A DNA stretch of 64,000 bases from Octopus vulgaris (Eukaryota): positions 57,784,001 to 57,848,000 of the forward strand of contig OX597815.1 in the NCBI GenBank assembly GCA_951406725.2, given 5' to 3'. The notes under the pieces were generated by a model. That model ran no database searches, was not told the DNA's origin, and saw nothing but the letters and a program-made list of their open reading frames with translations. Position 1 is the stretch's first letter. Each line of letters begins with the position of its first letter. A program made the translations under genes and the position numbers. Shown one piece after another: positions 10,120 to 45,027 of the stretch.

Positions 10120-11385
10120 CAAGAACATGTTAATATATATTATTTTATATTTTTGTTATATTTTATGAGTGTATAAATATATAAGAGTTATATACATTTT
10201 TATTTATATATAAGCTTTTTATTGTATAAAATAAAGAAATAAAAGAATATTTTTTGTAGAAATAAAAGTAAAATTTAAATTTTTTAAAATGAAAAATATA
10301 TTGTAGATATAAACAAAAGAAATATAAAACAGTTTTATATATTATATATATATATATTTGATTTGTATTAACAATGTATATAGAAAAATATTAGATATAA
10401 ATAATTTTATATATGTATATAATAAAAATGTAGGAATTGGAAATATTATAGAGATTGTTTTTTATCAAAAAACACAAAAAAACACACAAAAAAAAATATA
10501 TATATATAATATAAAAAAAAAAAAAACAAAAAAAAACAACACAATAAAAACCAAATAAAACAAGAAAAAGGAAAAAAAAAAAATATTTATATATATATAT
10601 ATATATATAAAATATTTATATATTAATATATATATATATTTTTTATTATATATATAAATATAAAAATAATTTTCTTTTTTTGTAAAAAATATTTTTAAAA
10701 TTGCAAAAAACTTTTAGAAAAATAAAAAATTTATATATATAATATATAAGAAATATATATAATAGATCTACAACAACCCCAAAAAAGAAGAAGGAGGAAA
10801 AAAAAAAAAAAAAAGAAAAAAAAAAACAAAAAAGAAAATAAAAAAAAAAAAGAACAAAAAAAAAAAAAAAAAAAAAAAAATAATAAAAAATATAAAATAC
10901 AAAAGACACAACAGAAAACAAAAAAAAAAGAAAAAAAGAAAAAAAAAAAAAAAAAAAAAGAAAAAAAAAAAAGGGAGAGAAGAAAAAGAAGAGAAAAAGA
11001 GAAAAAAAAGAAAAAAAAAAATTAAAAAACCAAACAAGCAAAGGGAAAAAAAAAAGAAACAAAAAAGAAAACAAATATATAAAATAAAAAAATAAAAAAT
11101 AAAAAACACAACAACAACACAAAACACAACAAAATAAAAAAAAAAAAAAGAAGGAAAAAGGAGAGAAGAAACAAAAAAGGGATAAAATATAAAAAAAAAA
11201 AAAAAAAAGATAAAAAAAAAAAGTTAAAAAACAAGGGGGAAAAAAGAATAAGAAAAAAATAAAAAAAAAGCAACAAAAAACACACACCAAAAAAAAACAA
11301 AAAAACCCGCAATCACACAATAATATATATACACAACACATACCCACCACTCCAACACAACACCACCTCCTCCCCAAACGCATTA
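10120..11385. other. A-rich low-complexity tract, probably low-quality or unpolished sequence
   Basis: Irregular A runs with no repeat unit, directly beside a TA array. Confidence 0.6.
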
Positions 11386-14300
11386 TATATATATATATAT
11401 ATATATATATATATATATATATATAATATATATATATATATATATATATATATATATATATATATATATATATATATATGTATGTATATATATATATATA
11501 TATATATGTATTTGTCTTTTATTTTTTTATTGTATTATGATATGTGTTAATATTTTATTATATATATATATATATATATATATATATATATATATATATA
11601 TATATATGTATAAATATATATATATATTATATGTATTATGTATATATATATATATATATATGTATATATATTATATATGTATATATATATATATATGTAT
11701 GTATGTATATGTATATAACATATATATTATTATGTATATATATATTTGTATGTATTATATATATATATAGAGAAATATATATATATATATATATATATCA
11801 CACAACATATAATATATTTTCATGTATGTATATATATATATATATATATATATATATATATATGTATATATATATATATATACACACACATGTATGTATA
11901 TGTATATATATATATATATATATATGTATCATATATATATATATATATATATGTATATATATAAATATGTATATATATATATGTATATGTATATATATAT
12001 ATTTGTATATATATATATATGATGTATACATATATATATATTTGATATATATATGTATTGTATGTATATATATATATTGATGTATATATATACATGATAT
12101 ATATATATGTATATATATATTGTTGTATATATATTGTATGTATATATATTGTATGTTGTATATATATATATGTATATATATATATGTATATATATATATA
12201 TATATGTATATATATATATATGATATATATATATATAGATATATATATATAGATATATATATATATATATATATATATAGATATATATATATATAAATAT
12301 AATTTTTATGTATATATATATATATGTGTATGTATATATATATATGTATGTATGTATCATATATGTATGTATATATATATATATGTATGTATATATATAT
12401 ATGTATGTATGTATATATATATATATATATATATGTATGTATGTATGTATGTATGTATATATGTATATATGTATGTATATATATATGTATGTATGTATGT
12501 ATATATATATATGTATGTATATATATGTATATATATATATGTATGTATATACATATATATATGTATGTATGTATATATATATGTATGTATGTATGTATAT
12601 GTATACATAGATACATGTACATAATACATATATATATATATATATGTACATACATACATACATGTATATACATAGATGTATGCACACATATATACATATA
12701 TACATATATACATATATACATACATATATACATATATTTGTTTTTACTTAGTATGTTTTGTTTTTATTTTTATATATATATATATTTTTTTGTATATATG
12801 TGTGTGTGTATGCGTATATAAATATATGTATGTATATATATATATGTATGTATGTATGTATGTATATATATATATATATATATGGTTTTTATGTATATTG
12901 TATGTATATATTTTTTTGTCTGTATATTTAATATGTTTTTTCTTGTGTGTGTATATTTATATATGTGTGTATGTATATATATATGCGTATATATGTATAT
13001 ATTAATGCATGTATGTTTTATATACGTATATGTATATATACACATACGTATGATGTATATGTTTATGTATGTATATATATATAATTAATTATTTATATAT
13101 ATAGCATGTATGTATTATATAATGTTTTTATATTATTTTGTCTGTTTTATATAGATGCCAGATATATATATATGTGTTGTATATATATATATGTATGTAT
13201 AAAAAGTTTTATATATATATTATAATTGTAATATATTATTATATATATATATATATATATGTGTGTGTGTATGTGTGTGTGTATATGTGTGTGTATATGT
13301 GTGTGTGTGTGTGTGTGTGTGTGTGTGTGTGTGTGTGTATGTGTATGTGTGTGTGTATGTATGTATATATATATGTATGTATATATATATATATGTATGT
13401 ATATATATATATATATGTATGTATATATATATATATATGTATATAAAATATATATGTATGATAATATAATGTATATATATATATATATGTATGCATATAT
13501 ATATATATATAATATATATATATATATTGGATATATATATATATGTGTATATATATATGTATATATATATATATATATATATATATATATATATATAATA
13601 TATATATGTATATATACATATATATGTATATATATATATGTATATAAGATATATATATATGTATATATATATATACATGTATATATATATATATGTATAT
13701 ATATATATATGTATATATATATTGTATATATACATATATATATATGTATATATATATATAATATATATATATGTATATATATATATATATATATATATAT
13801 ATATATATATATATATATATATATATATATATATATATATGTATATATATATATATATATATATATATATATATATATATATATATATATATATATATAT
13901 ATATATATATATATATATATATATATATATATATATATATATATATATATATATATATATATGTATATATATATACATATATATATATATGTATATATAT
14001 ATATGTATATATATATATATATATATGTATATATATATATGTATATATATACAGTATATATATATATATATGTATGTATATATATATATATGTATATATA
14101 TATATATATATATATATATATATATATATATATATGTATATATATATATATATGTATATATATATATGTATACAACATATATCATGTATAATATAAGATA
14201 TGTATATATATGTATATATATACATACAAGAAAATAATGATATATATATATGTATATATATATATATATATATATATGTACAATATATGTATATATATAT

Positions 14301-14610
14301 ATTATATATAAATATGTATATATATATACACAAAAACACATCCCAAAAAAGGAGATAGCAGATAAATATATTGATATAGAAATGTATATAAATATCAAAT
14401 AAAGTATATATATAAAAAAAAGATATATATATATAGTATATATATATAGATAAATATATATATATAAAATAGATATAAAAATATATATGTATATATGTTA
14501 TATATATAATATATATATACATAAGATATATATAAGATATATATATATGTATTTCCAAAGAGATATAAGATATGAGAATATATATATATATATGATATCA
14601 TATATATTAC
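11385..14610. repeat. Degenerate (TA)n/(TATG)n/(TG)n microsatellite array
   Basis: Seen directly. Confidence 0.95.
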
Positions 14611-41796: not shown

Positions 41797-44700
41797 ATAT
41801 ATATATATGTATATGTATATATATATATATATATATGTATATATATGTATATATATATGTATATATATATATATATATATATATGTATATATATATGTAT
41901 ATATATGTATATATATATGTATATATATGTATATATATGTATATATATGTATAGATATATGCATATATATATATATGTATATATATGTATATATATATGT
42001 ATATATATATGTATATATATATACATATATATACATATATATATATATGTATATATATATGTGTATATATATATATATGTATATGTATATATGTATATAT
42101 ATATATATGTATATATATATATATATATATATATATATATATATATATATATATATATTATATATATATATATATATATATATATATATATATATATATA
42201 TATATATATATATATATATATATATATATATATATATATATATATATATATATATATATATATATATATATATATATATACATATATATATACATACATA
42301 TATATATACATATATATATGTACATATATATGTATATATATATGTATGTATATATATATGTATATATATATGTATGTATATATATATGTATGTATATATA
42401 TATGTATATATATATATGTATGTATATATATATATATATATATATATATATGTATGTATATATATATGTATATATATATATATATATATATATATGTATA
42501 TATATATATGTATATATATATATGTATATATATATATATGTATGTATATATATATTGTATATATATATATATATGTATATATATATGTATATATATGTAT
42601 ATGTATGTATATATATATGTATATGTATGTATATATATATGTATATATATGTATATGTATGTATATATATGTGTATATGTATGTATATATATGTATATAT
42701 ATATGTATATATATGTATGTATATATATATGTATATATATATATGTATATATATATATGTATATATATATATATGTATATGTAAATATATATATGTATAT
42801 ATATATATGTATATGTATATATATATATATGTATATTTATATATATATATATGTATATATATATATATATATATATATATATATTATATATATATATATA
42901 TATATATATATATATATATATATATATATATATATATATATATATATATATATATATATATATATGTATATATATATATGTATATATATATATATGTATA
43001 TATATATATATATATACATATATATATATATATATATATATGTATATATATATATGTGTATATATATATGTGTATATATATATGTGTATATATATATATG
43101 TATATATATATATATATATATATATATATATATACGTATATATATATATTTATATATATGTATATATATGTATATATATATATATATATATATATATATA
43201 TATATATATATATATGTATATATATATATATATATATATATGTATATATATATATATATATATATATGTATATATATATATATATATATATATATATATA
43301 TGTATATATATGTATATATATATGTATATATATATGTATATATGTATATATATATGTATATATATGTATATTTATATGTATATATATATATATGTATATA
43401 AATATATATGTATATATATGTATATATATATATATGTATATATATATATATGTATATATATATATGTATATATATATATATATATATATATATATATATA
43501 TATATGTATGTATATATATATGTATATATATATGTATGTATATATATATATGTATATATATATGTATATATATATATGTATGTATATATATATGTATATA
43601 TATATGTATATATATATATATGTATGTATATATATAAGTATATATATATATGTATGTATATATATATGTATATATATATATGTATATATATATATATGTA
43701 TGTATATATATGTATATATATATATGTATGTATATATATATGTATGTATATATATATGTATATATATATATATGTATGTATATATATATGTATGTATATA
43801 TATATGTATATATATATATATGTATGTATATATATATGTATATATATGTATATGTATGTATATATATATGTATATATATGTATATGTATGTATATATATA
43901 TGTATATATATGTATATGTATGTATATATATATGTATATATATGTATGTATATATATATGTATATATATGTATATATATATATGTATATATATATATGTA
44001 TATATATATGTATATATATATATATATATATATATATATATATATATATATATATATATATATATATATATATATATATATATATATATATATATATATA
44101 TATGTATATATATATATATATATATATATATGTATATTTGTATATATATATATATGTATATATATATATATGTATATTTATATATATATATATATGTATA
44201 TATATTTATATATATATATATATATATATATATATATATATATATATATATATATATATATATATATATATATATATATATATATATATATATATGTATA
44301 TATATATATATATGTATAATAAATCTTATATATATGTATATATATATATATATATATATATATAATAAATCTCATATATATGTATATATATATATATATA
44401 TATATATGTATAATAAATCTCATATATTATATATATATATATATATATATATATGTATAATAAATCTCATATATATATATATATATATATATATATATAT
44501 ATATGTATAATAAATCTCATATATATGTATATATATATATATATATATATATGTATAATAAATCTCATATATATGTATATATATATATATATATATATAT
44601 ATAATAAATCTCATATATATGTATATATATATATATATCCGATTTATATATATATATATAAATACATACACACACATATATATATACATATACATATATA

Positions 44701-45027
44701 TATATACATATATACATATATATATATACATATATATATATATATATATATATATATATATATATATATATATATATATATGTATATATGTATATATATA
44801 TATATCTGTCCGATTTATATATATATATATAAATACATACACACACATATATATATACATATACATATATATATATATATATACATATATACATATATAT
44901 ATACATATATATATATGTATATATACATATATATATATATGTATATATGTATATATATATATATATATATATATATATATATATGTATATGTATATATAT
45001 ATGTGTGTGTATGTATTTATATATATA
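41797..45027. repeat. ~3.2-kb (TA)n/(TATG) array ending in a ~48-bp minisatellite
   Basis: Seen directly; taataaatctcata units at 44317-44615. Confidence 0.95.

Follow-up and report, generated by a model that had tools for sequence, protein, structure and literature searches.

We analysed a 64,000-nt stretch of Octopus vulgaris DNA (assembly GCA_951406725.2, contig OX597815.1, positions 57,784,001 to 57,848,000 of the forward strand), referred to here as the window, in which long interspersed nuclear elements (LINEs) of three families, A, B and C, sit in long arrays of the dinucleotide repeat (TA)n. Long (TA)n arrays alternate with retroelements over an island that spans window positions 11,384-45,044, and within the 10 kb that adjoin the window on either side, (TA)4+ runs account for no more than 118 and 28 nt. 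The island and two elements downstream of it are organised as follows.

11384-14607, no strand: degenerate (TA)n array, left island edge (Tandem Repeats Finder)
14725-16137, plus strand: family A copy A1, intact over its 3′ ~860 nt and degraded towards the 5′ end; (TTTAAGGA)n tail running into TA
16138-20308, no strand: 4.2-kb (TA)n array common to the 3′ ends of A1 and B
20309-25942, minus strand: full-length family B element (5.6 kb) with TA on either side and a (GTAAAAGA)n tail
20386-23355, minus strand: frame of B open reading frame 2 (ORF2), 990 aa, apurinic/apyrimidinic-type endonuclease (APE) and reverse transcriptase (RT)
23297-24259, minus strand: B ORF1, overlapping ORF2 in the -1 frame
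~24002-24208, minus strand: predicted Myb/SANT-like domain of B ORF1
~23681-23752, minus strand: CCCH finger of B ORF1 (match below cut-off)
25943-26616, no strand: (TA)n array from the B 5′ end to the C1 3′ end
26617-29887, minus strand: family C copy C1, 5′-truncated within ORF1; open ORF2 frame at 26708-29827; (AATC)n tail
29888-33677, no strand: degenerate TA/TATG array enclosing an RTE 3′ piece
31038-31327, plus strand: comparison element, an RTE 3′ fragment that lies in the array and has a (GAT)n tail
33678-34635, plus strand: RTE fragment without tail, TA on both sides; comparison element
34636-34743, no strand: (TA)n array
34744-37654, minus strand: family C copy C2
37653-38440, no strand: (TA)n array
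38585-39152, plus strand: family A copy A2, 5′-truncated; 13-nt TA run 5′, array 3′
39153-39875, no strand: (TA)n array common to the 3′ ends of A2 and C3
39876-41799, minus strand: family C copy C3, older subfamily
41797-45044, no strand: (TA)n array, right island edge
50131-52109, plus strand: copy of the older family D; A-rich tail, then a 9-nt TA run
53024-54140, plus strand: copy of the canonical CR1, the negative control family; (ATT)n tail without a TA array

All six A, B and C copies (A1, B, C1, C2, A2 and C3) pass from their own tail directly into (TA)n. TA is also found at the 5′ junction of five of them, as long arrays for B, C1, C2 and C3 and as the 13-nt run for A2. Both orientations occur, the A copies lying on the plus strand and the B and C copies on the minus strand, because (TA)n is self-complementary. 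These observations, together with the short TA run behind D and its absence behind the canonical CR1, bear out what a sequence-only reading of the window had described. The 5′ junction of A1 is unreadable: upstream of ~15280 its identity to full-length A falls from 98-100% to 29-91% per 150-column bin, a degradation that probably reflects poor local sequence quality. The three C copies are separate insertions: C1 and C2 differ by 0.22%, more than the 0.11% that separates each of them from a copy elsewhere, on contig C1, and C3 diverges from both by 3.5%; a local duplication as the origin of copies C1 and C2 was rejected on the same grounds.

Copies were located in the whole 2.8-Gb assembly by exact or mismatch-tolerant 3′-end patterns, which gave 2057 matches for C, 1712 for A (one mismatch allowed), 508 for B and 951 for D (two mismatches allowed), and 2982 and 4830 for the comparison families RTE and CR1. 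We called TA, independently of the tail, when a perfect 8-nt TA run lay at most 45 nt from the 3′ pattern or at most 20 nt from the 5′ boundary; over 20 fixed 10-kb stretches the background rate is 8.1% for the 3′ test and 4.7% for the 5′ test. The samples combine the first listed matches with hand-spaced picks and are thus not random, and 30 of the 50 A loci belong to a one-base variant subset. Three rows were left out (L085, which is one insertion with L086; L388, which is the D copy of the window itself; and L140, which repeats L139), and seven A/B/C copies have no readable 5′ flank. In the pooled samples, TA is present at the 3′ end of 30/50 A, 40/49 B and 37/50 C copies, a total of 107/149, which rises to 92/108 for copies of at least 100 nt. 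At the 5′ junction the corresponding counts are 83/142 and 69/101. The canonical CR1 of the same genome has TA at only 1/37 3′ ends and 1/34 5′ junctions. Families A, B and C therefore sit in (TA)n far above chance and above CR1. The association is already present in copies that are more than 99% identical. The median TA tract measures 280 nt for B, 74 nt for C and 68 nt for A, against 34 nt in the background, the longest tracts lying beside the youngest family.

A stricter test, applied genome-wide, asked for ATATATAT directly after the second tail unit and found it in 103 of 414 B copies (24.9%), compared with 3.7% in the background. Of 34 sampled B copies 12 pass this test and 27 the looser one, so that under the looser test B would probably score somewhat lower across the whole genome than the 82% seen in the samples. 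The homing to TA put forward in the sequence-only reading thus holds genome-wide as a strong preference (107/149 against 1/37 for CR1), not as strict specificity: it is leaky, as the replicates and the RTE counts given below indicate. Setting A/B/C against other LINEs could have gone the other way; they stand above CR1 and, for long copies, above RTE as well.

The (TA)n arrays pre-exist the insertions. At 37 sites with at least 60 nt of array on each side, the G-versus-C skew of the interruptions agrees across the insert (rho 0.72, p=4e-7), and at 63 uncensored sites the point at which the array is split is approximately uniform (split fraction 0.228 versus 0.220, p=0.68). Together, the matching interruptions and the uniform split speak against TA being synthesised de novo, against duplication of the whole array or cleavage at a hairpin tip, and against random mis-joins; on the uniform split, both an insertion at the array centre and a whole-array duplication were rejected. 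It could be proposed that the element makes the TA itself, by reiterative reverse transcription, tail seeding or an array-sized target duplication, and so lengthens the arrays. Some observations lean that way: among 145 resolved copies TA is found at the 3′ end only in 27 and at the 5′ end only in 7, although the two detection windows differ; TA patches replace element sequence near the 5′ end of C2; and the youngest family has the longest tracts. The matching interruptions and the uniform split speak against it, as do the presence of TA at variable 5′ truncation points and the lack of any target duplication clear by eye at the non-TA sites inspected, and we regard this origin as highly improbable. 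The lengthening of arrays suggested by the sequence-only reading is not upheld either, there being no sign of it in the split point, the interruption pattern or any array-sized duplication.

The interruptions also bear on whether the contigs were mis-joined or polished through TA tracts, which we consider the least credible of the explanations. Such an artefact would fit the apparently low quality of the sequence at 10300-11400 and 14600-15280, the N gaps next to some copies and the odd TA patches of C2. Yet the association is seen on many contigs, including at short arrays (12-30 nt) between unique flanks; the strand-specific impurity matches across inserts; CR1 lies in the same assembly without TA; and copies C1 and C2 are not mutual duplicates. 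A mis-joined cluster, which would have undone the sequence-only reading, is therefore unlikely. Of the 63 5′ junctions, 28 were parsed cleanly, with an overlap with the array of at least 1 nt in 19 (48% expected) and of at least 2 nt in 7 (13% expected); the others are unparsed or show small rearrangements. The short tandem 3′ tails overlap the array by 1-2 nt. At locus L396, checked for an empty allele, one contig leads from the unique flank into the insertion coordinates, where it stops, and has 11 gap letters; it speaks for neither a filled nor an empty state.

Alternatively, insertion could be random, with long copies retained mainly in TA-rich blocks of low recombination, as has been proposed for Drosophila Waldo-A/B (cited in PMC3812793). 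The 3′ ends of B do cluster, in one ~4-Mb block per large contig that holds ~30% of the listed ends: 12 of the 39 listed on contig C1 (70.7-74.3 Mb), 12 of 38 on contig C2 (55.7-59.7 Mb, the block that holds the window) and 7 of 23 on contig C3 (96.0-100.0 Mb). These blocks are possibly pericentromeric or low-recombination domains. Long copies are also more often TA-bound than short ones (92/108 versus 15/41). Such passive accumulation is nonetheless very unlikely to account for the data, because the association is found at base-pair junctions and is not just regional, because B outside the blocks is still TA-flanked in 28/37 copies, because CR1 inside them is TA-flanked in 0/8, and because copies more than 99% identical are already TA-bound. 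The short copies, 41 of the 149 A/B/C copies, are 3′ pieces below 100 nt, mostly 32-60 nt long, that end just upstream of the 3′ hairpins. They lie mostly outside TA and possibly represent a separate, abortive integration route.

The other retroelements of the genome are not all indifferent to TA. Family D has TA at 13/29 3′ ends, which is above the 1/37 of CR1 (p=3e-5), both families being diverged and the CR1 tail also ending in AT; in the D sample, L376 and L377 are probably one duplicated site. An abundant short interspersed nuclear element (SINE), with 40,124 exact 3′-end matches, at least two head types and an internal TA/TG tract, has its stem-loop and (GTAAAAGA)n tail in common with family B, and was likely moved by the A-D lineage, judging from these common 3′ features. 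TA is found at 7/30 3′ ends in its sample (L171-L200), and at 1640 of 17,968 (9.1%) by the strict genome-wide test, below the 24.9% of B and above the 3.7% of the background; its 5′ boundaries, unreliable owing to the internal tract, were left out. Some enrichment of the SINE is expected if the ORF2 protein (ORF2p) carries part of the TA preference. The SINE is older than B, and its weaker link to TA may therefore reflect age rather than action in trans.

These families bring in the main rival explanation, namely that fragile (TA)n arrays melt, extrude hairpins or break and so capture any active retroelement, A, B and C seeming targeted because they are the youngest families. The enrichment of RTE (21/42) and of the SINE (7/30) is in keeping with this, as are the length of the tracts beside the youngest family (B median 280 nt), the tailless RTE piece lying in TA at 33678-34635 and the stimulation of L1 ORF2p by single-stranded DNA beside the nick, described in the accessible part of PMC12503042. 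Capture of this kind should have reached CR1, which is below background (1/37 overall and 0/8 in TA-rich blocks), and does not account for the 13/29 of the older family D. RTE is young as well, yet has tracts of at least 20 nt in only 12/42 copies and TA at roughly 7/34 5′ junctions, where at least 7 of the 34 rough boundaries are still inside RTE sequence. The arrays show no centre bias, contrary to hairpin-tip cleavage. At the 3′ end, long A/B/C copies exceed RTE (92/108 versus 21/42, p=3e-5). We consider capture by fragile arrays unlikely as the main cause; it is compatible with a preference encoded by the element, and the two are not exclusive. The caution in the sequence-only reading that the arrays may simply be permissive was thus partly right, RTE pieces indeed lying in arrays.

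Families A, B and C, together with the older D, form a single Octopus/octopod lineage of LINEs with APE and RT, as their sequences indicate. Full-length A, B and C each measure ~5.6 kb, and their ORF2s are 65-71% identical to one another. At E<=0.001, ORF2 has Pfam matches only to RVT_1 and Exo_endo_phos families (APE and RT), with no match to RNase H, and the catalytic motifs of both enzymes are intact in the alignment. A quick tree was built with IQ-TREE from 120 RT segments, RTE forming a long outgroup, without labelled Repbase/Dfam clade references. In it, A-D and three database proteins form one clade with a Shimodaira-Hasegawa-like approximate likelihood ratio (SH-aLRT) support of 100. 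This clade is nested in a wider one whose members come mostly from metagenome assemblies and which lies apart from the genome's canonical CR1. The RT of the lineage is 38% identical to that CR1 and 27% to RTE. One relative at 62% identity is labelled Argonauta, and relatives at 43-45% come from crustaceans and Clytia. Among the 26 of 80 metagenome loci listed, four in the wider clade have a readable 3′ flank, all on single short contigs; none of these terminates in (TA)n, and in one the end is (TACA)n.

Elements of the CR1 group have a short tandem-repeat 3′ tail and a 3′ stem-loop. Families A, B and C carry short tandem-repeat tails, the tail of D being A-rich, and in their 3′ stem-loop 3 of 9 pairs show a two-sided change among families (7 rows, one misregistered). 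Membership of the CR1 clade is likely on this anatomy. As far as the accessible text of PMC4120745 and PMC13343379 goes, the likeness extends to an ORF2 with APE and RT and no RNase H match, the short tandem tail, the stem-loop and a CR1-type C-terminal region, while the octopus lineage differs in being a long branch apart from canonical CR1 and in the make-up of its ORF1. The lineage is not R4-like, because it has an APE. A sequence search of the PDB with the endonuclease gave no match. We also observed that full-length A and B have a near-identical 5′ segment of ~550 nt (window 25380-25942) despite ORF2s that are 65% identical, which suggests an exchange of 5′ modules.

The ORF1 of A, B, C and D begins with a conserved 70-residue domain that is predicted to adopt a Myb/SANT-like DNA-binding fold. 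Its best score against Myb_DNA-bind_4 (PF13837) is 20.2 bits (E 0.00083), below the gathering score of 27 bits. The modelled domain consists of three helices (predicted local distance difference test, pLDDT, 82.5). Its best structural matches are to DNA-binding domains of the Myb/trihelix kind, namely ARR1 (Z 7.4; root-mean-square deviation 1.9 over 57 aligned residues), LUX (7.3), RAD (6.9) and GT-1 (6.7), all modest and below 8; Foldseek returned no match at E<=0.001, and Atlas Myb clusters score 0.82-0.87. A CCCH finger follows on the C-terminal side, also with a match below the Pfam cut-off. These two are the only ORF1 Pfam matches of note at E<=10, among which none of the described ORF1 types (RRM/CCHC, PHD, esterase, transposase-22) is found. 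In this the octopus ORF1 differs from the RRM, PHD or esterase types of the CR1 group, and the words "CCCH" and "SANT" have no occurrence in the accessible text of PMC4120745 and PMC13343379. An unusual ORF1 does not exclude CR1 membership, because the ORF1 type does not define the group according to the accessible part of PMC13343379. A profile of the Myb-like domain has only 26 representatives; of ten looked up, the three that carry a source name are all Octopus. Among 16 metagenome loci scanned, three distant relatives have CCCH fingers in ORF1 without a match to the Myb-like profile, so the domain may be a gain of the lineage. Over ~200 nt, ORF2 is overlapped by ORF1 in the -1 frame (window 23297-23510; also L237 and L225); the overlap is conserved in the ORF1 frame and begins with T- or A/T-runs. 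The ORF2 frame of B has no Met before the endonuclease, and those of A and C have one in frame. It is possible that B ORF2 is made by a -1 frameshift fusion or from a non-AUG start, the Met of A and C and the conservation in the ORF1 frame counting against the frameshift.

On balance, we think it probable that copies of A-D prefer pre-existing (TA)n through a preference encoded by the element and exerted during target-primed reverse transcription. The enrichment at both junctions and in both orientations, the pre-existing arrays, the uniform position within them, the intact APE/RT motifs and the tail overlaps all point to it. The endonuclease and reverse transcriptase of the lineage would nick and prime on (TA)n DNA. 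From the junctions and known LINE biology, the nick may fall at a TpA step, TA DNA being easy to melt, and the RNA tail may then pair with the nicked end. The 5′ end would be joined by microhomology or by template jumps onto the upstream TA strand, with little or no target duplication. More speculatively, an octopod CR1-like lineage may have acquired the predicted Myb/SANT domain of its ORF1 protein (ORF1p), which would tether the particle to TA DNA in cis and sharpen the preference. This addition is tentative; it would explain the strong homing of the LINEs compared with the weak homing, in trans, of the SINE with the same tail.

Several points weigh against a preference of the element's own. 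RTE, from an unrelated clade, is enriched too, with TA at 21/42 3′ ends overall and 8/12 in TA-rich blocks, and within such blocks the difference between RTE and long A/B/C copies from the first sample falls short of significance (p=0.053). The A/B/C 3′ pieces below 100 nt are TA-flanked in only 15/41. The spaced replicates fall below the first samples, at 14/20 versus 26/29 for B and 13/20 versus 24/30 for C. In length, the endonuclease loop region equals that of the untargeted CR1 and of distant relatives, so no targeting determinant is visible there, and the nick position is unreadable through microhomology. As for ORF1, the Myb and CCCH matches are below Pfam cut-offs, the fold matches have Z below 8 with no Foldseek match at E<=0.001, and D has the Myb-like domain yet is TA-flanked in under half of its copies.

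Several retrotransposons of the non-LTR (long terminal repeat) type are known to insert into microsatellites, such as Waldo of the R1 clade (ACAY), Kibi (TC)n and Koshi (TTC)n of the Tx1 clade, Dong (TAA)n and Togen (TG)n (accessible parts of PMC3812793, PMC4494074 and PMC4640811). The octopus lineage resembles them in inserting into a pre-existing microsatellite, and differs in its target, (TA)n, and probably in being CR1-like rather than of the R1, Tx1, R4 or NeSL groups. Most target-specific families belong to the early-branched, Tx1 and R1 groups (PMC4640811, accessible part). Target specificity has been ascribed to families with one sequence type in more than 20% of flanks, as for TC in Kibi and TTC in Koshi (PMC4494074, accessible part). 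A/B/C (107/149) and B under the strict count (24.9%) exceed this share; the octopus preference is leaky in that RTE, D and the SINE also pass it. In the visible part of PMC3812793, where one list item is hidden, the LINE targets listed are ACAY, TTC and TAA, and TA is listed only for Micron. The plant DNA transposons Micron, MuTAnT and SaTar have the same TA target, with unrelated elements stacked end to end via TA arrays (PMC3812793, PMC5907723 and PMC4486113, accessible parts); those are cut-and-paste elements of plants, whereas the octopus ones are reverse-transcribed LINEs of an animal. R2 recognises its DNA target by a Myb domain and a zinc finger (PMC12503042, accessible part), of which the octopus ORF1 has predicted counterparts whose role in targeting is conjectural; in R2 these domains lie in a single RT protein together with a restriction-like endonuclease (RLE), ribosomal DNA being the target, while in the octopus they lie in ORF1 of an APE element. 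Octopus tRNA-derived SINEs were described by Ohshima and Okada in 1994, as cited in the accessible part of PMC4758252; the SINE reported here, with the stem-loop and tail of B, is not matched to a named family and is far less TA-bound than B. In O. vulgaris, 13 recently active CR1 families have been reported, with nothing on targets in the accessible text (PMC13282606).

We found neither a TA-targeting LINE nor an ORF1 with Myb and CCCH domains in the literature that was open to searching; such a note may stand in Repbase Reports, in the Zenodo library that accompanies PMC13282606 or in subscription papers, most of which lay outside the search. Within that scope, a TA target combined with a CR1-like lineage has no earlier report for a LINE, and (TA)n is reported as a target only for plant DNA transposons. 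The CR1 group is not known to be specific in its target. If the preference is encoded by the element, LINEs would have come to target microsatellites independently once more, here in a CR1-like lineage; if the tethering by ORF1p is true, the target would be chosen by ORF1p rather than by the endonuclease alone. Whatever its cause, the feature is real and reproducible, a leaky microsatellite-targeted LINE with a candidate targeting domain. The system lends itself to testing, since a single genome combines three young families whose ORF2 frames are open, a CR1 without targeting and an RTE with partial targeting, along with a partner SINE that shares the tail and an ORF1 domain that is a candidate for targeting. 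A SINE present in at least 40,000 copies likely owes its spread to the lineage, and the finding explains the LINE-TA mosaics that trouble octopus assemblies.

Some further observations were made along the way. The sequence at window 10300-11400 and 14600-15280 is A-rich and error-like, and resembles poorly polished assembly. In copy C2, at 37560-37654, ~54 nt of the element are swapped for a short TA run, with the element resuming beyond; this may be due to polishing or to a template jump that landed on target DNA. The two RTE pieces of the island (31038-31327 and 33678-34635) may be halves of one 3′ region, their order swapped and TA between them. Another repeat family repeatedly starts right after TA runs (L407:1590-1700, L071, L116 and L180). 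Beside D copies, L458 and L459 hold two similar single-frame ORFs of ~720-740 aa, apparently a duplicated host gene. Finally, inverted-repeat structures at window 9787-10116 and 45046-45540, with 78-84% identity, may be non-autonomous DNA transposons.

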